From Patescibacteria group bacterium (GTDB taxonomy: Bacteria; Patescibacteriota; Patescibacteriia; UBA10025; JAHIVO01): DNA of 64,000 nt. Each line of letters opens with the position of its first letter. Within the stretch, counting starts at the first letter, position 1. Under the pieces are notes generated by a model. It ran no database searches. It was not told the origin of the DNA and was given only the letters and a program-made list of their open reading frames with translations. Shown here piece after piece: positions 4,819 to 51,471 of the stretch. A program made the translations under genes and the position numbers. Where the stretch lies: NCBI GenBank assembly GCA_028718605.1, contig JAQULM010000003.1:16971-80970 (forward strand). The letters run 5' to 3'.

Positions 4819-5963
4819 TTACTTCCCGAAATTCACCCCGCCGCGGAAACCGATCGGAAACACCCAGAACCAGTCTTTGAGCACCCCGGTGTCGGTGTCG
4901 TAGTCATACACCCGGAGATTCGGGCCGCCGTGGGATGCCGGGGAGGTCATGACCTCGTCAAACCCGTCAGCGTCGACGTCGTTCACGAACAGGTTAACGC
5001 CACCCATGAAATGGGCGTCGTACGCCATGAATGAATCAACTTCTTCGAAATCGCCCCCCTGGTACCGCAACACCTTCACTGTGGAATCGCCAAGCGTCTT
5101 GGGGGCAAGCACCACCTCATTGGAGCCGTCACCGTCCGTATCCCCCACCTGCATGGACAGGGTGCCGCGATAGGAGCTGTCGTACGCCATGAGCCAGTCG
5201 AGGAGCTCCAGCTCGTCACTGCCATTCAGTGTGTAAATGCGGATGTTCGGGCCGCCGTTCAGGAAGGGCGCGACGATGATGTCGTCGTTCCCGTCAGAAT
5301 CCACATCCCCGGTAGCCACCTGCACACCGCCAAAGAAGGTGTCTTGGTACGCGGTAACGCTATCGACTAAATCAAACTCCTGGTCTGCGGCGCTATAGCG
5401 GAATACCTTTACAATGGGCGCCATCGCGCCGCGCGGGGTTACGATGAGCTCGTCAACACCGTCGGAATCCAGGTCACCCGATGCCAGGTTGACCCCGCCG
5501 CGGAACTCCTCGCTGTAGCCAAAAAACCAGTCCATGAGCTCAAATTCCTCTTCAGCGACATTGTACGTATAGATGCGGATGTTCGGGCCGCCGGCGCCGA
5601 TCGGCGTCACGGCAATGTCTTCCTTGTGGTCGCCGTCAAAGTCGCCCGTGGCAAGGTTGACGCCGCCGGTAAATCCCTCGTTGAACGCGAGGGTATTCGC
5701 CATTTCCGTGCCATCGAGCTCAAACGCCTTGATGCGGGACTCAACCCCGGCGCCGGGGGTGATAACAATTTCATTCACGCTGTCTGCGTCAATATCTGCC
5801 TGCGCAACTTCGAGGCCCATGCGCAAACTCTGGTCGTAGGCGAAGAACGACTCGATCTGGGTGCCGTCATCCTCGACGATGCGCACGTTGGGGCCGCCTG
5901 CTGAGGCGGGGGTAACGACGATGCCGAGGGATGGGATCGCGTCTGAAGTCATAAAGGTCCATG
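4819..5963. repeat. ~1.14-kb near-identical direct repeat, copy A (3' part of paralog 1)
   Basis: Identical to 32513..33658 apart from 2 nt near the stop. Antisense ORF-track entries 4949..5173, 5573..5839 and 5626..5904 are identical to 32643..32867, 33267..33533 and 33320..33598. Confidence 0.85.
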
Positions 5964-7407
5964 CAGTTTGCGACTCGTTTCCCAGTTCATCACTTGCCGT
6001 TACCGCAACCTCAACAGTTTCGCGGTAATAAAAGTTATCATCTGGATTGATAGTCACCGTGTAACCGTGGGTGCCATTCCAGCCCATTGTACCACCATAC
6101 CCAGACTCATAAACTCCATCGGTAACCGCCCGATGGCCGTTTATGGTTACGTCAATCGAATAGGTATCAACTTCCCAGAGCTCGTCACTGACGAAAAAGC
6201 TCACGTCAGAATTTGGTGAAACGCCGGTTTCTGCGCTTCCCGGGCTCAAGTTGTCAAACGTCGGCCCTGTTGTATCGGCAACAAATCCGTCCCAAACGCC
6301 TGCGCCATCAACAGTATTCTCGGTACCGATATATAAATGATGGCCATGCTCGACCAATCCATACGCGCGCGTATTGCTGCTATCGCCGAATCCGTCATCA
6401 TTCACCTGGGCAAAGGTGTTACCATCGTACGTCCAGACCTCTGCACCAGTTACGAGGTTGCGCGTGCCAAACGTCAGTGTACTGTTGTACTTGGTAATCG
6501 CAAGCAAGGTCGCGTTATTCAAATCGCCGAAGCCATCATCACCGATCTGGGTAAAAGTACTGCCGTCGTACGTCCAGGCTTCCACGCCGGTCGTCGGGTT
6601 CCATGTCCCAATATACAATACGCTACCGTTTGCATAGAGGGAAAACGGCTCCAAATTATTGATGTCACCAAACCCATCATCGTTGAGCGCAGTCCAGGAT
6701 GTTCCGTCGTATTCATGGAGTTGCCCGCCGGTTACCACATTGCCCGCGCCTGCTAAAAGCTTCCCATTATACTCAACCAGGGAATCGGTGTACAAATTGC
6801 CAGCATCGCCGAATCCGTCATCGTTCACCTGGTTCCAGTCGGTGCCATCGTATGACCAAATCTCAGCGCCAGTCCAAAAATTGTACGAACCAACATACAG
6901 CTTTTCATCAAAGACGAGCATCGAAAAACCGCTAAAGTTGTGCACATCGCCGAAACCATTGGTATTAACCTGGGTCCACACGCTACTGCGGTACCGCCAC
7001 ACCTCGACGCCAGTAATTTCATTGTACGTAGCGACATACAGTGAGCCATTATATTCCGCCATGCTGCTAATAATAACATTGTTTGCATCCCCGAAGCCAT
7101 CAGTATTCACTTGGCTCCAGACATCACCATCATACGCCCACACTTCAGCGCCAGTTGTGGCATTTGATGTGCCGACATAGAGCTGATCAGAGCTCACCAG
7201 CGACATCGTACGGGTGTTATTCACATCACCGAACCCGCCACTGTCACTTTCTGACCAGGTAATTGCAGCGTGCACACTGGCCGGAACCAGCCACGCTGCA
7301 ACAGCAAAAACAGCCACGGCAATGAATGCCCTGACATTGTGTCCATTTCCCATACTCGTATGTTTAATTGTTATCCCTCTCGCATTCAGTATAGTATACA
7401 ATTCCAC
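4819..7407 (-). CDS. large secreted two-propeller protein, paralog 1: N-terminal YDG..W..QVN.DGFGD repeats, Ig-like middle domain, C-terminal FG-GAP-like repeats
   Basis: 862 aa with signal peptide. About 7 N-terminal ~50-aa repeats (..TG.E.W.YDG..W.QVN.DGFGD..N). 7 C-terminal repeats of GGVNLATGDFDGDHKEDIAV type (FG-GAP/integrin-alpha-like). Ends in FRGGVNFGK. Confidence 0.8.
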   Translation of the reverse strand: MELYTILNARGITIKHTSMGNGHNVRAFIAVAVFAVAAWLVPASVHAAITWSESDSGGFGDVNNTRTMSLVSSDQLYVGTSNATTGAEVWAYDGDVWSQVNTDGFGDANNVIISSMAEYNGSLYVATYNEITGVEVWRYRSSVWTQVNTNGFGDVHNFSGFSMLVFDEKLYVGSYNFWTGAEIWSYDGTDWNQVNDDGFGDAGNLYTDSLVEYNGKLLAGAGNVVTGGQLHEYDGTSWTALNDDGFGDINNLEPFSLYANGSVLYIGTWNPTTGVEAWTYDGSTFTQIGDDGFGDLNNATLLAITKYNSTLTFGTRNLVTGAEVWTYDGNTFAQVNDDGFGDSSNTRAYGLVEHGHHLYIGTENTVDGAGVWDGFVADTTGPTFDNLSPGSAETGVSPNSDVSFFVSDELWEVDTYSIDVTINGHRAVTDGVYESGYGGTMGWNGTHGYTVTINPDDNFYYRETVEVAVTASDELGNESQTAWTFMTSDAIPSLGIVVTPASAGGPNVRIVEDDGTQIESFFAYDQSLRMGLEVAQADIDADSVNEIVITPGAGVESRIKAFELDGTEMANTLAFNEGFTGGVNLATGDFDGDHKEDIAVTPIGAGGPNIRIYTYNVAEEEFELMDWFFGYSEEFRGGVNLASGDLDSDGVDELIVTPRGAMAPIVKVFRYSAADQEFDLVDSVTAYQDTFFGGVQVATGDVDSDGNDDIIVAPFLNGGPNIRIYTLNGSDELELLDWLMAYDSSYRGTLSMQVGDTDGDGSNEVVLAPKTLGDSTVKVLRYQGGDFEEVDSFMAYDAHFMGGVNLFVNDVDADGFDEVMTSPASHGGPNLRVYDYDTDTGVLKDWFWVFPIGFRGGVNFGK

Positions 7408-15541: not shown

Positions 15542-18112
15542 CTATTTCCCGAAATTCACCCCGCCGCGGAATCCTTCCGGGAATGCCCAGAACCACGATT
15601 TCAACACGCGGGTGCCGGATTCCATGTCGTACACACGGACATTCGGGCCACCGAGGGAGGCGGGCGAAGTCATCACCTCGTCAATGCCGTCCCCGTCTAC
15701 GTCAGCGAGAAACAGGTTCACCCCGCCGCGGAACGCTTCGTCGTACGCCATGAACCAATCCATCAATGCGAGCGAATTATTTTCGTAACGGTAGATACGC
15801 ACGTTCGGGCCGCCCAACGACTGGGGAACGAGGGTTATTTCCCCCTTGCCATCGCCGTTCACGTCACCGACGGACATGGAGAGCGTGCCGCGGTACGTGT
15901 CTTGGTATGCCATGACCCAGGTCAAGAGCTCGAGGTCACCGTCAGCGTTCACGGTATACACGCGGATATTCGGGCCGCCATTCAGGTAGGGGGAAACGAT
16001 GACGTCGTCCGCACCATCGCCGTTGATGTCGCCCGTCCCGAGCTGTACGCCACCATGGTACGCCGACTGGTATGCCATGACGCTTGTCGTCAATTCAAAC
16101 TCGCCCCGTGAGGCGCTGTACTTGAAAACGCGCACGTCGGGGCCACCCTGGCCGCGCGGCGCGGTTATGATTTCGTCGATACTATCACCATCCAGATCCC
16201 CGGCAACCACGTTCACGCCGCCGCGGAACGCAGCATCATAGGCAAAGAACCAGTCAGTGAGGTCCAGCCCATCACCCGCCGCATTGAGCGAGTAGATGCG
16301 CACGTTCGGGCCGCCTGCGGATATCGGAGCGACGGCAATGTCTTCACGGTCGTCGCCGTCAAAGTCACCGGTTGCCACGGTCACGCCGCCGGTGAAGCCT
16401 TCATTGAACGCGAGCGTCGAAGCGATCTCGGTACCGTCAAGCTCAAATGCCTTGATGCGGGACTCAACCCCCTGGCCCGGCGTCACGACAATCTCATTTA
16501 CTGAGTCAGCGTCAATATCCGCCTGCGCAACCTCGAGGCCCATGCGCAACGACTGGTCATAGACGAAGAAGGATGAAATCTGGGCGCCTGCCTCGTCAAC
16601 AACGCGCACGTTCGGGCCGCCCTTGGATGCGGGAGACATGACAATGCCCAACGACGGCCGATCAGCCGTTGTGGTGAATTCCCACGACGGCGTACTCGCA
16701 TTCCCCCGTGCATCACTCACTGTCACGCTCACCGCTACGGGAGTGCCGTAGCCGTACCCACTGCTGGAATTTATTACCACGTGCAGGCTCCCGTCTTCAT
16801 TCGCGGTGACCGTCCCGAAATAGCCATCTTCAAACTGCCCAGCGCTCACCGCACGGTGGCCGGCCACGCTGACACCAAGCGTTGCGCTGTCAACATCATA
16901 CACCGCATCCGTCAGGGTGAAGGAAATGGCTACGCGGGGATCTACTCCGCGGTCACCGCCCGCGGGAGACTGCTCACTCGCCACTGGGCCGACGCCGTCA
17001 GGGAGGGATGTTTCCCAGATCTCCGTGCCACTATTCATGCCCGCCGTCCCAACGTAGAGTACCCCGCCGATCGTCGTCAGCATTGAGGAGCTAAAATTTT
17101 CGTGGTGTCCGAAGCCGTCCTCATTAACCTGCTCCCATGACGATCCGTCATACGCCCACAGTTCGGTGCCGGTAGTGGGATTCGTCGTGCCCGCATACAG
17201 CGTATGGTTATAATCAACTAAAGAAAATACGTCATAATTATTCGAACCGTCGCCAAACCCGCCGCTGCGCACCTCGGTACACGCCGTCCCGTCGTACGCC
17301 CACACTTCCCCGCCATCGGTCGAATTCCGCGTGCCGATAAAGAGTTGCCCGTCAAAAACCTGTACGTCAATGAATCCTAAGTTATCGGCATTGCCAAACC
17401 CGTCGGTGCACACCTGTGACCAGTCAGTACCGTCGTATTCCCACAGTTCGGCGCCTGTTCCCGGCGCTGCCCTGAGGGTACCGATGAACAGGTGGCTTCC
17501 GTACTCCTGCATGCTCATGCAGTAGGCATTGTTGGCATCGCCGAAGCCGTCCTCGTTCACCTGCGACCATGCATCGCCGTCGTACGCCCACATCTCGCAC
17601 CCGGCAACTTCATTCGTCGTGCCGGTGAAAAGGATATCGTCATATATAAACAGATTATACGACATCGTATTGAGTGGGTCGCCGAAGCCGTCCTCGTTCA
17701 CCTGCTCCCATGACGATCCATTATACGCCCACAGTTCGGTCCCGGTTACGTCATTGACCGTGCCGACGTACAGCATGCCTTCGAACACTTCGACGCTCGC
17801 CGCTTCAACATTATTTCCGTCGCCGAAGCCGTCCTCGTTCACCTGCTCCCATGACGATCCATCGTAGCGCCAGACCTCAGCGCCCGTCTCCCAGTTCGTG
17901 ACGCCCGTATAGAGGTCGTCATCGTACTCAACGAGCGAATACGAGATAGTATTAAACGAATCGCCGAAGCCGTCCTCATTACTCTGCGTCCAGGCAAGGC
18001 TCTGGGCACTGGCAATGCTTGGGACCATGGCCCAGACCGCAAAAAAACCCAGTGCAACAAGGCCTGCTACAATATAAACACCGCTGCTTCGCATTGGTAG
18101 TGATTGCTGCAT
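15542..18112 (-). CDS. large secreted two-propeller protein, paralog 2 (diverged copy)
   Basis: 856 aa with the same architecture as paralogs 1 and 3. The C-terminal FG-GAP-like region is roughly 75-80% identical to the other copies. Ends in FRGGVNFGK. Confidence 0.8.
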   Translation of the reverse strand: MQQSLPMRSSGVYIVAGLVALGFFAVWAMVPSIASAQSLAWTQSNEDGFGDSFNTISYSLVEYDDDLYTGVTNWETGAEVWRYDGSSWEQVNEDGFGDGNNVEAASVEVFEGMLYVGTVNDVTGTELWAYNGSSWEQVNEDGFGDPLNTMSYNLFIYDDILFTGTTNEVAGCEMWAYDGDAWSQVNEDGFGDANNAYCMSMQEYGSHLFIGTLRAAPGTGAELWEYDGTDWSQVCTDGFGNADNLGFIDVQVFDGQLFIGTRNSTDGGEVWAYDGTACTEVRSGGFGDGSNNYDVFSLVDYNHTLYAGTTNPTTGTELWAYDGSSWEQVNEDGFGHHENFSSSMLTTIGGVLYVGTAGMNSGTEIWETSLPDGVGPVASEQSPAGGDRGVDPRVAISFTLTDAVYDVDSATLGVSVAGHRAVSAGQFEDGYFGTVTANEDGSLHVVINSSSGYGYGTPVAVSVTVSDARGNASTPSWEFTTTADRPSLGIVMSPASKGGPNVRVVDEAGAQISSFFVYDQSLRMGLEVAQADIDADSVNEIVVTPGQGVESRIKAFELDGTEIASTLAFNEGFTGGVTVATGDFDGDDREDIAVAPISAGGPNVRIYSLNAAGDGLDLTDWFFAYDAAFRGGVNVVAGDLDGDSIDEIITAPRGQGGPDVRVFKYSASRGEFELTTSVMAYQSAYHGGVQLGTGDINGDGADDVIVSPYLNGGPNIRVYTVNADGDLELLTWVMAYQDTYRGTLSMSVGDVNGDGKGEITLVPQSLGGPNVRIYRYENNSLALMDWFMAYDEAFRGGVNLFLADVDGDGIDEVMTSPASLGGPNVRVYDMESGTRVLKSWFWAFPEGFRGGVNFGK

Positions 18113-32512: not shown

Positions 32513-33658
32513 CTACTTCCCGAAATTCACCCCGCCGCGGAAACCAACCGGAAACACCCAGAACCAGTCTTTGAGCACCCCGGTGTCGGTGTCGTAGTCA
32601 TACACCCGGAGATTCGGGCCGCCGTGGGATGCCGGGGAGGTCATGACCTCGTCAAACCCGTCAGCGTCGACGTCGTTCACGAACAGGTTAACGCCACCCA
32701 TGAAATGGGCGTCGTACGCCATGAATGAATCAACTTCTTCGAAATCGCCCCCCTGGTACCGCAACACCTTCACTGTGGAATCGCCAAGCGTCTTGGGGGC
32801 AAGCACCACCTCATTGGAGCCGTCACCGTCCGTATCCCCCACCTGCATGGACAGGGTGCCGCGATAGGAGCTGTCGTACGCCATGAGCCAGTCGAGGAGC
32901 TCCAGCTCGTCACTGCCATTCAGTGTGTAAATGCGGATGTTCGGGCCGCCGTTCAGGAAGGGCGCGACGATGATGTCGTCGTTCCCGTCAGAATCCACAT
33001 CCCCGGTAGCCACCTGCACACCGCCAAAGAAGGTGTCTTGGTACGCGGTAACGCTATCGACTAAATCAAACTCCTGGTCTGCGGCGCTATAGCGGAATAC
33101 CTTTACAATGGGCGCCATCGCGCCGCGCGGGGTTACGATGAGCTCGTCAACACCGTCGGAATCCAGGTCACCCGATGCCAGGTTGACCCCGCCGCGGAAC
33201 TCCTCGCTGTAGCCAAAAAACCAGTCCATGAGCTCAAATTCCTCTTCAGCGACATTGTACGTATAGATGCGGATGTTCGGGCCGCCGGCGCCGATCGGCG
33301 TCACGGCAATGTCTTCCTTGTGGTCGCCGTCAAAGTCGCCCGTGGCAAGGTTGACGCCGCCGGTAAATCCCTCGTTGAACGCGAGGGTATTCGCCATTTC
33401 CGTGCCATCGAGCTCAAACGCCTTGATGCGGGACTCAACCCCGGCGCCGGGGGTGATAACAATTTCATTCACGCTGTCTGCGTCAATATCTGCCTGCGCA
33501 ACTTCGAGGCCCATGCGCAAACTCTGGTCGTAGGCGAAGAACGACTCGATCTGGGTGCCGTCATCCTCGACGATGCGCACGTTGGGGCCGCCTGCTGAGG
33601 CGGGGGTAACGACGATGCCGAGGGATGGGATCGCGTCTGAAGTCATAAAGGTCCATGA
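32513..33658. repeat. ~1.14-kb near-identical direct repeat, copy B (3' part of paralog 3)
   Basis: See copy A at 4819..5963. Identity ends at ...aaggtccatg, after which the two sequences diverge. Confidence 0.85.
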
Positions 33659-35071
33659 AAGTGAACTCTGGTTGGCCCCTGAATCGCTGACAGTAGCGGT
33701 AATCGAAACCAACTGGCCGTAATAGAAATCAGCCCCTGGTTGGATGGTTATTTCGTATGACCACGTTTCGTTCTGTGTAATCGTCCCGGAAAAATCTTCC
33801 GTTAATTCACCGTCGACGATTGCATACACGCCATCGACGAGCACATCCAAACTCGCGCTGTCAACGTCGAGGACTGCGTCAGTAATTGAAAATGTAATAT
33901 CAGTGCCCCGCGCTACGCCCCGAGCGGCATTTGCCGGAACAAGGTCGCTGACTACCGGGCCGGTACTGTCCTCGAGTTCTCCTTTCCACATTTGCGTCCC
34001 ATCGGAGTCGCTGTTCGTTCCAGCGTACAATATGTTATCGTACGCCGATAAAAGCGAGGTACTGTACCCATCGGTGCCGCCAAAACCATCCTCGTTTACC
34101 TGTGCCCATGAAGAACCGTCATATGACCACATCTCAGTGCCGGTCACCGCGTTCGTTGTGCCGGCGTATAAATGATGGGTAAGCGTCTCGAGGGAATACA
34201 CACCGGTATTGTGGTCATCATCAAACCCCGCATGCGATACGCGGGTGAATTCCGCACCGTCATACTTCCACACTTCTCCGCCGTTGGTCGGGTTCTCCGT
34301 GCTGATGTACAGCGATCCGCCGAACTCCTGCAAATCCATGAAACCTTCATTGGTTGCGTCACCAAAGCCGTCGGTTCCCACCATGGACCAGTCCGACCCA
34401 TCATACTTCCACAGCTCGGCGGGCTGGGTATCTTTATACGTGCCAACATAGAGTTCCCCCTGATACTCTTCCGAGGCCATACAATACGTATTCGAGTGAT
34501 CCCCGAAACCATCGGTATTAACTTGCGTCCAAGAATCGCCATCGTATTCCCAGAATTCGCAGCCAGTAGAAAAATTGCCGGTCGCGGCGTAGAGTTTATC
34601 GTTAAAAACCGTTACATCCATCACGATATAGTTTTCCGCATCGCCAAAACCGTCCGTATTGGCCTGGGACCACGTAGTGCCATCGTACGCCCAAACCTCG
34701 GCCCCAGTAATGAGGCGCTGGGTTGCGACGTACAGCTTGCCGTCATATACGGCAAGTCCGGGGCCCTCAACATTCATTGCATCGCCAAATCCATCGGTAT
34801 TGACCTGGGTCCACGTTGATCCATCAAGCCGCAGCACCCGAGTGCCGTCATTCCAGTTGGAAGTAGCAGTATAGAAATGGCCCTCGTATTCAGCAAGCGA
34901 GTATACAATAAGATTACCGGCATCGCCGAGGCCGGTCGTGCTTGACTGCGCCCACGTTATATCCTGGGCGTGTGCAATATTCGGAATGAGCACGCACGCA
35001 AACATACCACCCACGATCAAACGCAGAGCAACTGCAATGCCTGCATGGTGTTGAGCATGTAATTGTCCCAT
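32513..35071 (-). CDS. large secreted two-propeller protein, paralog 3
   Basis: 852 aa. The N-terminal repeat region is diverged from paralog 1. The C-terminal ~380 aa are identical to paralog 1 except for 1 residue. Confidence 0.8.
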   Translation of the reverse strand: MGQLHAQHHAGIAVALRLIVGGMFACVLIPNIAHAQDITWAQSSTTGLGDAGNLIVYSLAEYEGHFYTATSNWNDGTRVLRLDGSTWTQVNTDGFGDAMNVEGPGLAVYDGKLYVATQRLITGAEVWAYDGTTWSQANTDGFGDAENYIVMDVTVFNDKLYAATGNFSTGCEFWEYDGDSWTQVNTDGFGDHSNTYCMASEEYQGELYVGTYKDTQPAELWKYDGSDWSMVGTDGFGDATNEGFMDLQEFGGSLYISTENPTNGGEVWKYDGAEFTRVSHAGFDDDHNTGVYSLETLTHHLYAGTTNAVTGTEMWSYDGSSWAQVNEDGFGGTDGYSTSLLSAYDNILYAGTNSDSDGTQMWKGELEDSTGPVVSDLVPANAARGVARGTDITFSITDAVLDVDSASLDVLVDGVYAIVDGELTEDFSGTITQNETWSYEITIQPGADFYYGQLVSITATVSDSGANQSSLSWTFMTSDAIPSLGIVVTPASAGGPNVRIVEDDGTQIESFFAYDQSLRMGLEVAQADIDADSVNEIVITPGAGVESRIKAFELDGTEMANTLAFNEGFTGGVNLATGDFDGDHKEDIAVTPIGAGGPNIRIYTYNVAEEEFELMDWFFGYSEEFRGGVNLASGDLDSDGVDELIVTPRGAMAPIVKVFRYSAADQEFDLVDSVTAYQDTFFGGVQVATGDVDSDGNDDIIVAPFLNGGPNIRIYTLNGSDELELLDWLMAYDSSYRGTLSMQVGDTDGDGSNEVVLAPKTLGDSTVKVLRYQGGDFEEVDSFMAYDAHFMGGVNLFVNDVDADGFDEVMTSPASHGGPNLRVYDYDTDTGVLKDWFWVFPVGFRGGVNFGK

Positions 35072-48362: not shown

Positions 48363-48941
48363 TCAAACAGTTTTTCCCCCACGTTCAGAACTATCGGTGC
48401 GCCAATGGACCCAGGACGCGAGCGCCAGCATCAAAATCAATACAAACGCCGTAAGCGCCATGACGGGAATGGTAACATAGCCAAAATACTCTACCTGCTT
48501 TTGGCCGCAGGAAATGTCGGAAAAAATACTGCATACGCCAGCCGCTACTTCCGTCTGCTGCTCATACACGTGGTACCCAGCAATGGCGGCGCCGATCACC
48601 GACAGGATAAAGCTCGTGGTCAATGCACCCCGGTCCTTCTTCCATACCGCGACGGCAAAAAGTATAACGTGCGGGTACATCGCTATTCGTTGGAACCAAC
48701 ACAGCCTGCACGGCACGAGATGGGCAACCTCAGAAAAGAACAAACTGCCGGCAGTGGCTACCGACGCGACGATAAGTGAAAACAGGACGGCATGATCGCT
48801 AAAAAAACCTATAATTTTCGCCAACCCACTCTCCGCTTTTCGCGGGATACTGATTGCACCAGCGAGGAAAATAATAAGCGCCTGCGCAGCCATAGTCAGG
48901 ATTGAGAGTACTATCCCGATTGATTCGTTGAAACTTGTCAT
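48363..48941 (-). CDS. disulfide bond formation protein B (DsbB/BdbC family)
   Basis: 4 TM helices. CRLCWFQR CxxC motif in periplasmic loop 1, and a second Cys pair (SCGQ). Confidence 0.6.
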   Translation of the reverse strand: MTSFNESIGIVLSILTMAAQALIIFLAGAISIPRKAESGLAKIIGFFSDHAVLFSLIVASVATAGSLFFSEVAHLVPCRLCWFQRIAMYPHVILFAVAVWKKDRGALTTSFILSVIGAAIAGYHVYEQQTEVAAGVCSIFSDISCGQKQVEYFGYVTIPVMALTAFVLILMLALASWVHWRTDSSERGGKTV

Positions 48942-49017: not shown

Positions 49018-50262
49018 CTATTGAAGCTGCCCAATATGAGAACCGGCGCAGTACCCCGTACTCCAGCACATCTGGAGATTGAACCCGCCGGTCGGGCCGA
49101 CAACATCCAACACTTCTCCCGCTAACAATAAATTCGAAACGACTTTTGAATGCATTGTCCGCGGGTCTACCTCGCGTAAACTAACACCCCCCGATGTTAC
49201 GATTGCCCGATCAAAACCGGCAAGCGAATGAACAGTAAGAGTAAAATTCTTTACACGGTGGCTAATTCGCAACCGTTCCTCCCGAGTTATTTCGTGCACC
49301 TTTTTTTCCGGGTCAATGCCGCATAACCGAACCACGATGGGAATGGCTGTTTTGGGGAGCAAAAGGTGCAAACTGTTCTTGAACGCCTTATTCGAAAATT
49401 CGCTGAAGTCCTTCTGTATGCGCGCATCCAGTTCCTCGAGTGAAAGTGCAGGCTTAAAATCGACATTTAATGTCACCATCCCTTTTTTCAGTGCCTGGCC
49501 AATCGCCGTGCTCAGCGTGAGGACGACCGGGCCGGACAAGCCAGTGTCAGTAAAAAGAGCTTCTCCGAATTCTGACGCAACCCGTTTGCCTGCCAGGAGT
49601 ACGCTGACCGTCACGTTTTTCAGGCTCAATCCCTCAAGTTCTTTTACCCATGCTTCTCTTACATTGACGGGAGTAAGCGCCGGTTCCGGCGGCGTGATGG
49701 TATGCCCTATGTGCTGAAGCCAGCCATACGCGTCTCCGGTCGATCCTGTCTCGGGATGCGCTTTCCCGCCCGTGCATATCACATACTGCTCCGCACGGAG
49801 CTCTTCTCCGTTTGACAGGACAACGCACTGAATTGCCTTTCTGCTGAAGTTCAAGCGTTTCACCGCTGCTCCAGTCCGCACTGACACGCGATGTTCCTTC
49901 AGGTACCCGAGAAGCGCGTCGATGACGTCGTGAGAGCGGTCGTTCGAAGGAAAAACACGATTGCCCCGCTCGACTTTCGTCAGTACACCGTGGCGGTTGA
50001 AAAAATCGATCACATCCTGCGGTCCGAACGCGTGGAATGCGGAAAAAAGGAATTTTCCGTTCTTGCCGTATTTTGAAACCAACGCGCGCTCGTTGAATTC
50101 AGCGTTTGTAATATTGCACCTGCCCTTCCCGGTGATTGAGAGTTTGATTCCCGTCCTGTCTCTTTTTTCCAACAATAAAACATGCGCACCAAGCTCCGCT
50201 GCTCTGCCCGCGGCCATCATCCCTGCTGGCCCGCCGCCGATAACGATAAGATCGTATTTCAT
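49018..50262 (-). CDS. HI0933-like (BaiN/aminoacetone-oxidase-like) FAD-dependent oxidoreductase
   Basis: N-terminal GGGPAG Rossmann motif. ITGKGRCNITN and a C-terminal GG..L.E motif. 414 aa. Confidence 0.8.
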   Translation of the reverse strand: MKYDLIVIGGGPAGMMAAGRAAELGAHVLLLEKRDRTGIKLSITGKGRCNITNAEFNERALVSKYGKNGKFLFSAFHAFGPQDVIDFFNRHGVLTKVERGNRVFPSNDRSHDVIDALLGYLKEHRVSVRTGAAVKRLNFSRKAIQCVVLSNGEELRAEQYVICTGGKAHPETGSTGDAYGWLQHIGHTITPPEPALTPVNVREAWVKELEGLSLKNVTVSVLLAGKRVASEFGEALFTDTGLSGPVVLTLSTAIGQALKKGMVTLNVDFKPALSLEELDARIQKDFSEFSNKAFKNSLHLLLPKTAIPIVVRLCGIDPEKKVHEITREERLRISHRVKNFTLTVHSLAGFDRAIVTSGGVSLREVDPRTMHSKVVSNLLLAGEVLDVVGPTGGFNLQMCWSTGYCAGSHIGQLQ

Positions 50263-50306
50263 TGCCTTAGTATACCAAAAAACGCCTCACCAAACGAGAC
50301 GTTGGT

Positions 50307-50381
50307 TGGCGGGGCCACGAGGAGTCGAACCTCGATCAGCGGTTTTGGAGACCGCTATACTAGCCATTGTACTATAGCCCC
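50307..50381 (-). tRNA. tRNA-Trp(CCA)
   Basis: Cloverleaf with anticodon loop CUCCAAA. T-arm GGTTCGACTCC. CCA encoded. Confidence 0.85.
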
Positions 50382-50400: not shown

Positions 50401-50556
50401 TTATTTCGTTTCCTTGTGCAACGTATGTTTGTCGCACCACTTGCAGAACTTCTTGAGTTCAATACGCTGCTTCAACGTTTTCTTATTTTTCTTCGAGTGG
50501 TAATTGATGCGATGGCATTCTTTGCACTCAAGCTTGATGAGATTTTCCTGTGACAT
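50401..50556 (-). CDS. rpmG: 50S ribosomal protein L33
   Basis: 51 aa with CKEC...CKWC zinc-ribbon. Classic position beside tRNA-Trp. Confidence 0.8.
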
Positions 50557-50691: not shown

Positions 50692-50854
50692 GGAGCCACC
50701 CGTCGGATTTGAACCGACGACCTACTGTTTACAAAACAGTTGCTCTTCCGGGGCATTCGGATCGCCTTCAGCGATAACCTCACGCCCGCCTCGATGGGCG
50801 CAACTGAAGCAGTTCAGTTGCTTTTGCCATCTCGGCCCACTGAGCTAGGGTGTC
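50692..50854 (-). pseudogene. tRNA-Thr(UGU)-like copy with ~88-nt insertion in the D-loop and acceptor-stem mismatch
   Basis: The 3' two-thirds is identical to the adjacent tRNA-Thr. The D-loop GGTA is replaced by a structured ~88-nt insert. Acceptor position 2 is A instead of C. The 3' end is CCG, not CCA. Confidence 0.5.
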
Positions 50855-50929
50855 TGGAGCCACCCGTCGGATTTGAACCGACGACCTACTGTTTACAAAA
50901 CAGTTGCTCTACCACTGAGCTAGGGTGGC
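50855..50929 (-). tRNA. tRNA-Thr(UGU)
   Basis: GCCACCCTAGCTCAGTGGTAGAGCAACTGTTTTGTAAACAGT..GGTTCAAATCC..GGGTGGCTCCA with anticodon UGU. Confidence 0.85.
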
Positions 50930-50932
50930 ACA

Positions 50933-51015
50933 TGGGTGGAGTAGGATTCGAACCTACGAAGCCCGGAGGCAACAGATTTACAGTCTGTCCCAGTTGACCA
51001 CTTTGGTATCCACCC
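50933..51015 (-). tRNA. tRNA-Tyr(GUA) (long variable arm)
   Basis: GGGTGGATACCAAAGTGGTCAACTGGGACAGACTGTAAATCTGT + long variable arm + GGTTCGAATCC. Confidence 0.85.
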
Positions 51016-51265
51016 GTGATTCCTCTTTTTTAAGTAACGTCGTGAACGCTTTACCGCCTTTGTATTTTTTTATCTGCATCTCCCTTTTGTAGGCATCCGT
51101 TTTGGATAAAAAAGATTCCGTATGAATTAATGTCCAAGGACGCCCATTTCGAGTCGAGTGCACTCTACCGCGATTATGCTGCATGAGTCGAGTGGATAAG
51201 GTACGTGTATGCCCAATATAATGCTTTCCTGTTTTTTCACTTTTTATAATATAGACGGTGTGCAT
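50978..51265 (-). CDS. GIY-YIG nuclease domain protein (small, standalone)
   Basis: MHTVYIIKSEKTGKHYIGHTRTLSTRLMQHNRG...RPWTLIHTESFLSKTDAYKREMQIKKYKGGK carries the GIY...YIG...R...E motifs. Its 3' end runs into the tRNA-Tyr gene. Confidence 0.6.
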   Translation of the reverse strand: MHTVYIIKSEKTGKHYIGHTRTLSTRLMQHNRGRVHSTRNGRPWTLIHTESFLSKTDAYKREMQIKKYKGGKAFTTLLKKEESRVDTKVVNWDRL

Positions 51266-51320
51266 GATGCACCAAGATTTATGCCGCCTCTGGCGGCACC
51301 CCGCCAAAGGCGGTGGCAGT

Positions 51321-51355
51321 CTGTCCCAGTTGACCACTTTGGTATCCACCCGTGA
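51321..51355 (-). repeat. duplicated 5' half of tRNA-Tyr (acceptor, D-arm and anticodon stem) with no 3' half
   Basis: 35 nt identical to the 5' half of the intact tRNA-Tyr (cagtctgtcccagttgaccactttggtatccaccc). Confidence 0.7.
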
Positions 51356-51395
51356 TAGCGATTTCAAACGAAGCATGCGATGCCCCCGCCGCCTC

Positions 51396-51471
51396 TGGAG
51401 CCGTTGGCCGGAATTGAACCGGCGACCTACTCCTTACCATGGAGTTGCTCTACCAACTGAGCTACAACGGC
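51396..51471 (-). tRNA. tRNA-Thr(GGU)
   Basis: GCCGTTGTAGCTCAGTTGGTAGAGCAACTCCATGGTAAGGAGT..GGTTCAATTCC..CCA. Confidence 0.85.

Follow-up and report, generated by a model that had tools for sequence, protein, structure and literature searches.

The phage endonuclease SegB cuts inside tRNA genes, where double-strand breaks and homologous recombination give rise to tandem repeats of tRNA and truncated segB sequences, and segB homologues co-localise widely with tRNAs (PMC13096335). In fungal mitochondria, mobile open reading frames (mORFs; Allomyces atp6 and Glomus atp6, atp9, cox2 and nad3) bring an endonuclease open reading frame (ORF) into an essential gene along with a substitute for the displaced gene end, whose native version is left as an orphan, the mORF in atp9 being of the GIY-YIG type (PMC3630166); in the same genomes, short conserved and mobile hairpin and double-hairpin repeats and GC clusters insert into genes and rRNAs of fungal and sponge mitochondrial DNA (PMC2800124). 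For repetitive extragenic palindromic (REP)-type systems, clean insertion without target duplication beside a short motif has been described (PMC2817692). Within the GIY-YIG superfamily, Slx1 is a structure-specific nuclease, and the minimal prokaryotic Slx1-like/UPF0213 family of Dunin-Horkawicz et al. lacks the C-terminal Asn of the UvrC/I-TevI branch, is inherited mainly vertically and has no known function (PMC1564403). Here we describe a locus in a 64-kb stretch of contig JAQULM010000003.1 of a Patescibacteria bacterium (the whole stretch is called the window), in which a GIY-YIG gene of this latter kind lies in a tRNA cluster together with a double-hairpin module (M1) and an orphaned half of tRNA-Tyr. 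The interval is probably a small selfish cassette, consisting of M1, a short leader and the Slx1/UPF0213-type gene, that resides in tRNA-Tyr and restores its target by partial duplication.

Every feature of the cluster lies on the minus strand. The remodelled interval is limited upstream by tRNA-Thr(GGU) (51471-51396; ARAGORN, and Rfam tRNA with 72.1 bits), after which a 39-nt spacer leads to an orphan copy of tRNA-Tyr (51317-51356) that comprises a 5-nt leader, ATCAC, and nt 1-35 of the gene and stops at G34, the first anticodon base. Inserted after G34 is the 35-nt M1 (51282-51316; CCACCGCC-TTTG-GCGGGG-T-GCCGCC-AGAG-GCGGC-A), recognised by its sequence and its conservation in other loci, and then the stub TAAATCT (51275-51281), which equals tRNA-Tyr nt 35-41 and so covers what is left of the anticodon loop and the first part of the 3′ stem strand next to it. 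Nine nt separate this stub from the start of the GIY-YIG ORF of 95 amino acids (aa) (50978-51265, from ATG at 51265 to TAA at 50978), whose stop codon overlaps the anticodon of an intact tRNA-Tyr(GUA) (50933-51015; ARAGORN, Rfam 59.5 bits). The intact gene holds the second copy (51020-50981) of an exact 40-mer direct repeat, 50981-51020 being identical to 51317-51356, with the two copies spaced 296 nt apart; allowing up to six mismatches, no third copy was found in the 64-kb window. An earlier note on this DNA had recognised the nuclease ORF running at its 3′ end into intact tRNA-Tyr, as well as the exact duplicate of the tRNA-Tyr 5′ half, the length of which it put at 35 nt and which really spans 40 nt; the generic repeat considered there as an alternative can be set aside, the 40-mer being unique in the window. 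Both M1 and a split tRNA-Thr described below had escaped that note. A 40-nt exact repeat cannot have arisen by chance. An assembly artefact was also ruled out, since an independent 3.7-kb contig (locus L008, GCA_028711455.1) was 100% identical over the whole cluster and the same architecture was found in dozens of unrelated assemblies.

Orthologous sites in relatives were retrieved via the neighbouring TPR (tetratricopeptide repeat) protein, the nearest being ~50% identical, and the order rpsB-tsf-PSP1-TPR-[tRNA cluster] was conserved among them. In the nearest relative (L089, 50% TPR identity) the site is filled, with an orphan extending to ~nt 57, different hairpins and an ORF only 39% identical to that of the window. 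In L090/L091 it is empty: tRNA-Thr(GGU) is followed by 25 nt and a tRNA-Tyr 95% identical to the window's, with neither ORF nor duplicate. L092 has no ORF and contains tRNA-Thr and tRNA-Tyr fragments with hairpins, while L093 retains a C-terminal ORF remnant (...YKGGEAFNRLINKK and a stop) and a broken 5′ part upstream of intact tRNA-Tyr, and the metagenome-assembled genome (MAG) of L093 also has an intact family gene beside tRNA-Ser(GCU) (L069). Empty, decayed, debris-only and filled sites in syntenic relatives thus bore out the insertion into a tRNA gene cluster that had been proposed, including the empty site that the earlier note had suggested seeking. Filled, empty and decayed copies at a target site of its own are what a homing gene displays, but here they were found only at roughly family-level distance. 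No tuf gene was present in this cluster in these relatives, nor among the ORFs examined around the window's cluster; as relatives with and without the ORF are equally tuf-less and this order is usual for the lineage, the missing tufB, earlier taken as an anomaly, is irrelevant.

The window protein comprises an 82-aa domain and a 13-aa tail, the tail codons and the stop being contributed by the tRNA-Tyr leader and 5′ half, and its homologues stop ~13 residues earlier. It matched the Pfam GIY-YIG model PF01541 (E = 8.7e-15, 55.2 bits versus a cut-off of 22.6), and its AlphaFold2 model (mean predicted local distance difference test, pLDDT, of 84.6) showed the order β-β-α-α-β-α, with residues 86-95 scoring below 50 and the tail hence predicted to be disordered. 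Among 80 relatives, Y5, Y16, R26, H30 and E62 were conserved in 99-100%, a family-specific motif, K66-x-Y-K-G-G-x-A-F-x-x-L77, was near-invariant and no conserved Asn followed E62. The motif match, catalytic residues and fold order place the protein in the GIY-YIG superfamily. In profile searches against the PDB, the best matches were the UPF0213 proteins 1zg2 (5.7e-6) and 1ywl (6.6e-6), followed by Slx1 (3e-3) and I-TevI (0.03), and Foldseek returned UPF0213 1zg2, Slx1 7cq3 (root-mean-square deviation 1.6 Å over 73 columns) and I-TevI in this order; identity to 1zg2 was only 28%. Sequence and fold thus both rank UPF0213 and Slx1 above I-TevI and UvrC. Taking as the definition of the Slx1/UPF0213 branch a stand-alone domain of ~80-100 aa without the C-terminal Asn and nearer to Slx1/UPF0213 than to UvrC/I-TevI (PMC1564403), the protein is, on its sequence and predicted fold, a member of the minimal prokaryotic Slx1-like/UPF0213 group. 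It does not belong to the Seg/I-TevI family, TIGR01453 matching at 19.8 bits (cut-off 56.05) over residues 2-32 only; PHROG homing-endonuclease models gave weak matches (6e-5 and 4e-3) and PADLOC defence models no significant match. An additional DNA-binding domain, as in homing endonucleases, is missing, the 82-aa domain filling the protein and the tail being predicted as disordered. The earlier assignment to a homing-endonuclease or small-mobile-element type consequently holds for the insertion and fails for a classical homing endonuclease, in the place of which stands a bare Slx1/UPF0213 catalytic domain.

An identical protein is deposited at NCBI as a Patescibacteria GIY-YIG nuclease family protein, and a tblastn search found no second GIY-YIG ORF in the window. 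At E ≤ 1e-10, 2,824 cluster representatives (50% identity) were collected, many of them annotated with N-terminal extensions, as would result from gene prediction continuing through the GC-rich module, which contains no stops. A search of 2.9 million viral contigs (IMG/VR) detected neither M1 nor a member of the protein family. Ratios of non-synonymous to synonymous substitution (dN/dS) ranged from 0.05 to 0.21 among family pairs, and two pairs at the same locus and with the same architecture (L060/L061 and L010/L033) combined dS >1 with dN/dS of ~0.05-0.1. Judging from these codon comparisons, the family is under strong purifying selection over long divergence at fixed loci.

A word-based protein search yielded only four relatives, and loci were therefore retrieved by a pattern search with four family proteins in one genome per GTDB species; of 227 candidate stretches 188 encode relatives, and 80 loci were kept, making up with the window and L001 a set of 82. 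The hosts were mostly Patescibacteria, with additional MAGs annotated as Ignavibacteria/Melioribacteraceae, Omnitrophota, Chlorobiota, Armatimonadetes and Bdellovibrionales. A same-strand tRNA gene lay within 120 nt of the ORF in 74/82 loci, downstream of the stop in 62 and just upstream in 12; most of the 62 downstream tRNAs began within 20 nt of the stop, and 15 overlapped the ORF as in the window. tRNA-Tyr or tRNA-Ser accounted for 66 of the 74 adjoining tRNAs, and six apparent exceptions (L017, L026, L030, L035, L063 and L082) proved on inspection to be due to masked sequence, hairpin-broken tRNAs or tandem units. The earlier suggestion that the same ORF might sit beside other tRNA genes was thereby confirmed for its relatives in many genomes, and partial copies of the adjoining tRNA bracket the ORF in most loci. 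About 28 of the 62 loci with a downstream tRNA have an orphan ending at nt 34/35. Fragment ends were concentrated at nt 34-35 (27 cases) and in the D-loop (24), and fragment starts at nt 35-36 (14) and in the T-loop at nt 56-58 (11), so that the fragment boundaries are concentrated in cloverleaf loops.

The architecture recurs compactly in more than 60 genomes and takes three arrangements, namely 5′ part, module, stub, ORF and intact tRNA, as in the window; intact tRNA, ORF, module and 3′ half; and ORF, intact tRNA, module and 3′ half, these being qualitative classes only, as the automated annotation under-detects bulged modules. An additional module lies 5′ of the ORF in L083, L142, L150 and L160; broken copies were also seen to carry hairpins, some of them in reverse orientation, in the D-loop, the variable arm and the T-loop. 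A full-length tRNA copy with M1 in the anticodon occurs in L078 and near-full-length ones in L113/L149 and L145, and the ORF copy of L063 is pseudogenised. A neighbour-joining tree of the 78-aa proteins was star-like when set against tRNA type and host, with partial clustering by tRNA type. The homologue in L001 has a tyrosine recombinase gene ~3 kb away. Two scaffolds of one MAG (L023/L024) that had looked like structural variants proved to be redundant and interrupted by N gaps. Tandem arrays of units (broken tRNA, module and ORF) or of hairpin-bearing tRNA 3′ halves were observed in L030 (~317-1084), L035 (~1800-2486), L023 (2355-2600) and L083 (2400-2700), and resemble the SegB-type segmental amplification of phage T6. 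As a separate observation, the 'intact' tRNA-Tyr beside the ORF in L013 (1906-1991) and L016 (1904-1987) has the T-loop GGTGCAAATCC, with G replacing the near-universal U55, and the downstream M1-interrupted copy of L013 has the canonical T-loop GGTTCGAATCC.

M1 has the consensus CCACCGCC-N4-GGCGGGG-T-[G/C/T]CCGCC-N4-GGCGG[C/G/A]-A and was kept at the same anticodon place in 25 listed loci, involving tRNA-Tyr, three Ser isoacceptors, two Pro and Thr. In Tyr and some Ser-GGA genes it starts immediately behind G34, in the other Ser genes and in Pro and Thr genes immediately behind G35, and in all 25 the stub on its 3′ side matches what remains of the neighbouring tRNA's anticodon loop together with the 3′ strand of its anticodon stem: GAAAGCGC for Ser-GGA, AAAACTGT for Ser-UGA, GGAGCAG for Pro and TAAACCAT for Thr. 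A similar stub, GAATCTGGTACA, follows the hairpins in L089 although the junction there is near nt 57, so part of the Tyr-lineage stub may be a conserved leader of the element. The M1 junction core was located 32-61 nt 5′ of the ATG in 47/82 loci; a GC-only hairpin lay within 90 nt before the ATG in 62/81 loci versus 3.8% of control windows, and GC hairpins were 8.5-fold enriched around family ORFs. The two-hairpin fold was paired in 96.6% of the cells of alignment A3 with double changes at four pairs, and the observed value was not attained in any of 500 shuffles; at the first pair of hairpin 2, nine sequences have G-C, eight C-G and two U-A. Folded as single-stranded DNA, the window M1 gave z = -3.2. 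Its two hairpins are near-copies of each other, and the 35 nt can form one 13-bp hairpin (minimum free energy structure, ViennaRNA); this single long hairpin was rejected as the conserved fold, since the loop complementarity is not kept in other loci and the two-hairpin fold is. As double-stranded DNA, either hairpin amounts to the interrupted palindrome CCGCC-N4-GGCGG, the half-sites of which resemble CCGC/GG, the site of the GIY-YIG restriction enzyme Cfr42I (PMC2241918).

M1 also occurs by itself. A module-pattern scan of metagenome contigs returned more than 120 stretches, and 54 well-formed modules were analysed, 19 with a family ORF within 700 nt and 35 solo. The solo copies were mostly far from tRNAs and showed no orientation bias relative to neighbouring genes, which speaks against a purely RNA-level role; 18/32 lay inside ORFs of at least 90 codons, several of these exceeding 300 codons. 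A G preceded them in 74% and AAA followed in 68-85%, and in L171 M1 interrupts a tandem repeat cleanly, without target duplication. Flanks able to form a stem were found for 12/34 solo modules, a weak signal compared with controls (mean 7.3, maximum 12). An ORF-less footprint (5′ half, M1, stub, 30-60 nt and intact tRNA-Ser) was present in L129, L135 and L156. No second M1 copy was found in the window, and Rfam 15, at gathering thresholds and permissively to E = 1, detected only tRNAs and matched neither M1 nor the module M2 described next. M1 thus plays, as far as sequence can tell, two parts: it is the constant companion of the ORF on its 5′ side, and it behaves as a miniature palindromic insertion element. 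Copies of 34-37 nt were seen inside ORFs of 328-690 codons (L163, L123, L171, L103 and L130), some in tandem-repeat regions, and M1 inside long ORFs recalls the in-frame Rickettsia palindromic elements.

A second module, M2, was found further down the cluster. After an intact tRNA-Thr(UGU) with encoded CCA (50855-50929; ARAGORN, Rfam 74.3 bits) comes a second copy of this gene (50692-50854), recognised by direct repeats and fold, which is split in the D-loop into a 5′ piece (50854-50837), M2 (50836-50750) and a 3′ piece (50749-50692) 98% identical to the intact gene. M2 measures 87 nt, has three hairpins with the core GGCGGGCGTGAGGTTATCGC and occurs in tRNA D-loops after ..GTGG. In the RNA fold of the split tRNA-Thr, the acceptor, anticodon and T arms are kept and the D-stem closes the insert (z = -4.3). 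Homologues were found at the same position in L092 (~5315-5399) and twice in L082 (~2264-2350 and ~2680-2770), one of the latter interrupting the D-loop of a broken tRNA-Ser(GCU) that immediately follows a family ORF. RNAalifold on the four copies gave 26 consensus pairs, 13 of them with compensatory changes, and hairpin 1 combines a variable stem with a conserved AA-CTGC-TT apex. ARAGORN and Rfam, which confirmed the tRNA genes of the cluster whose boundaries the earlier note had wished to see verified, also called a tRNA-Thr(UGU) at 50692-50765, weakly (32.1 bits versus a threshold of 29); this call was rejected as a genuine tRNA, being the 3′ two-thirds of the split copy plus a spurious 5′ arm. 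Such fragments inflate tRNA counts in such genomes.

Taken together, insertion of a cassette at an anticodon break, with a second copy of the displaced part rebuilding the gene, is well supported. In the course of events that we propose, tRNA-Tyr would first have been broken inside the anticodon after G34, as is shown by the coincidence of the orphan end with the start of M1 here and in many loci. The cassette would then have been joined there with a replacement leader and tRNA 5′ half, so that an intact tRNA-Tyr came to lie downstream and the original half was orphaned. Both mirror-image arrangements could be products of one crossover between an intact tRNA and a unit of M1-interrupted tRNA plus ORF, the arrangement depending on whether the crossover falls in the 5′ or the 3′ half. 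No terminator precedes the ORF, which lies within the tRNA operon, so its expression probably comes from transcripts that start at the tRNA promoter retained by the orphan half and read on into it. By analogy with phage SegB, the nuclease most likely makes the initiating breaks in tRNA-gene loops, above all the anticodon loop, and recombinational repair would copy the cassette and leave tRNA fragments and tandem partial copies; a preference for loop or structured DNA may be expected from the behaviour of Slx1. More speculatively, M1 and M2 might also spread without the ORF as miniature palindromic elements, and might be non-autonomous partners or recognition sites of the nuclease. We infer both the cleavage specificity and the role of M1 as the partner of the nuclease.

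Several points weigh against this cassette. That the nuclease cleaves at all, and what it cleaves, is deduced, and the protein has no DNA-binding domain with which to read a long site. The anticodon loop of the rebuilt tRNA-Tyr is normal and identical to that of the empty-site relative, so a nuclease cutting at 34|35 should cut its own locus; immunity would have to depend, purely conjecturally, on a bipartite target that neither copy keeps whole. Typical homing endonuclease genes decay after fixation, and the dS and dN/dS values above indicate a long vertical residence under selection for protein function. Orphan pieces are usually 100% identical to the live tRNA, which needs gene conversion or function and not mere decay, and this identity and the selection together indicate a stable residence that does not fit a transient invasion. 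No filled/empty polymorphism at the population level was seen among the relatives, whose nearest TPR protein is so distant, the star-like protein tree neither proves nor excludes horizontal transfer, and the search of viral contigs gave no viral vector.

A more specific version of the cassette, which we put forward tentatively, is a two-component mobile system in which the minimal Slx1-like nuclease would act on structured DNA and mobilise or recognise palindromic M1, and perhaps M2, modules that insert cleanly into hairpin loops; the autonomous copy would split the anticodons of class II tRNAs, supply the replacement tRNA part and borrow the tRNA promoter. A nuclease-plus-palindrome system of this kind is not described in prokaryotes, and there is a substantial chance that it represents a new type.

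The same selection and orphan identity could instead reflect a resident gene that benefits the host, with a role tied to tRNA genes or transcripts (copy homogenisation, repair or RNA processing) and co-transcribed with them, the orphan and M1 serving as a tRNA-like leader or operator. Purifying selection at the same locus across saturating synonymous divergence, the invariant K-x-Y-K-G-G-x-A-F-x-x-L motif, the fixed distance of M1 from the ATG, the orphan parts staying identical to the live tRNA and the cluster without internal terminator would all suit such a gene, and a prokaryotic protein in which an Slx1-like domain is joined to the tRNA methyltransferase TrmH has been taken as a hint of a role in RNA metabolism (PMC1564403). 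The gene is patchily distributed, however, being absent from the syntenic L090-L092, decayed in L093 and pseudogenised in L063; its neighbours are tRNAs of many types, its arrangement occurs in two mirror-image forms and also as tandem arrays, and M1 alone, at non-tRNA sites, in both orientations and within genes, is unlike a leader element. We regard a host gene as unlikely.

Somewhat less likely still is that the palindromic modules are the active part and the ORF a passenger, with GC-rich hairpins (M1, M2 and single CCCCGCC-N4-GGCGGGG hairpins) invading tRNA loops and provoking slippage or recombination that duplicates tRNA segments. The excess of solo over ORF-linked modules in the metagenome sample (35 to 19), the modules and tRNA debris of ORF-less L092, the scattered and sometimes reversed hairpins that broken tRNA copies carry in their D-loop, variable arm and T-loop, and the 8.5-fold hairpin enrichment around ORFs fit this view, but it leaves unexplained why ~90% of family loci lie beside a tRNA with M1 fixed 10-25 nt from the start codon and why the catalytic residues are invariant, and a dN/dS of 0.05-0.2 is not expected of passenger genes.

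Two further explanations are very improbable. The remnant of an integrase-mediated island or prophage, mostly deleted later, would suit a tRNA gene, the usual integration site, where integration duplicates a segment of the tRNA as a direct repeat, and the tyrosine recombinase gene near the L001 homologue, but is contradicted by the anatomy of the locus, in which the repeat is a 5′ half ending in the anticodon rather than a 3′ end, merely 296 nt lie between the repeats, no recombinase occurs among the neighbours (TPR, PSP1, tsf and rpsB; rpmG, HI0933-like and DsbB) and the same compact architecture is shared by >60 genomes. Equally, an intron in the tRNA-Tyr anticodon loop, either group I with a homing ORF or of the archaeal tRNA type, would recall the anticodon insertion point of the tRNA-Leu(UAA) group I intron and the full-length (L078) and near-full-length (L113/L149, L145) M1-bearing copies, but Rfam detected neither an intron nor a ribozyme down to E = 1 and hence no Intron_gpI core, only 51 nt of non-coding sequence separate the break from the ATG, the downstream exon is truncated after 7 nt in the window and followed by an intact uninterrupted tRNA-Tyr, so that two complete exons are lacking, and neither a bulge-helix-bulge motif nor position 37/38 is found.

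Downstream of the split tRNA-Thr, the cluster continues with rpmG (50401-50556; Pfam Ribosomal_L33, E = 8.9e-19), tRNA-Trp (50307-50381; ARAGORN and Rfam) and a terminator-like hairpin (50281-50303), the only one that the terminator scan detected in the cluster. No terminator-like site was found from tRNA-Thr(GGU) through to tRNA-Trp, which fits a single transcription unit, and no sigma-70-like site was found on the coding strand by the promoter scan, a model from which promoters of the candidate phyla radiation (CPR) may differ. Genes for an HI0933-like flavoprotein (49018-50262) and, 3′ of it, a DsbB-like protein (48363-48941), both on the minus strand, follow tRNA-Trp instead of secE-nusG, and the other flank of the cluster is formed by the TPR, PSP1, tsf and rpsB genes. 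Elsewhere in the window, the minus strand carries three paralogous genes (4819-7407, 15542-18112 and 32513-35071) that encode ~855 aa each and contain an internal repeat with a period of ~141 nt, two of them 99-100% identical over at least 900 nt (4820-5727 versus 32514-33421), and this near-identity suggests recent duplication or gene conversion.

These findings link a very large uncharacterised family of minimal GIY-YIG proteins to residence in tRNA-Tyr and tRNA-Ser genes with an anticodon-splitting module, and offer a testable substrate for an enzyme class without known prokaryotic function, as well as a cellular counterpart to the SegB-driven amplification of phage tRNAs. They also account for tRNA fragments and false tRNA calls in CPR clusters, which matters for tRNA annotation and the inference of genetic codes. 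Should the double hairpin prove to be a substrate of the nuclease, the enzyme would be a new and very small one specific for structures or palindromes, and the element a new type of mobile element; if the two-component reading is true, thousands of cassettes would be a hidden driver of the duplication, fragmentation and concerted evolution of tRNA genes in CPR and other phyla. In the full-text literature, with subscription journals largely outside it, no description was found of the family's linkage to tRNAs, of an anticodon double hairpin or of a bacterial GIY-YIG gene paired with palindromic repeats.

Compared with described systems, the UPF0213 proteins (BH0048 1zg2, EF2693 1ywl and E. coli YhbQ) are likewise minimal stand-alone GIY-YIG domains and the best sequence and fold matches, but the published description of that family mentions neither linkage to tRNA genes nor partly duplicated tRNAs nor a hairpin module (PMC1564403). 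The embedding of a GIY-YIG gene in a tRNA cluster is shared with SegB and other Seg proteins of T-even phages. SegB, however, is larger, with DNA-binding modules, and differs from the window protein in belonging to the I-TevI/UvrC branch, being phage-borne and showing no tRNA isotype preference, whereas the window family has an ~82-aa Slx1/UPF0213-type domain, a chromosomal location, a preference for Tyr and Ser and a double hairpin that splits the anticodon. With mORFs the locus has in common a nuclease ORF, a replacement target part and an orphaned native part; mORFs, though, are mitochondrial rather than bacterial, have no fixed coupling of ORF and double hairpin described for them and target protein genes, in which the replacement can diverge synonymously and so escape cleavage, whereas the locus described here has a tRNA for its target and an identical duplicate. 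Dispersed GC-rich palindromes flanking one protein gene are typical of REP and REP-associated tyrosine transposase (RAYT) systems (REPtrons) and of IS200/IS605, the enzymes of which are HUH/Y1 transposases with covalent DNA intermediates; GIY-YIG nucleases form none, and REPs do not target tRNA anticodons. The window element resembles REP/RAYT in its dispersed palindromes and linked protein gene and, with GIY-YIG in the place of HUH, is not a member of that group; we know of no comparable mobile element in prokaryotes that is based on a GIY-YIG nuclease. The window element works in the manner of a free-standing homing cassette with target restoration, yet stands outside Seg/I-TevI, introns, integrase islands and REP/RAYT.

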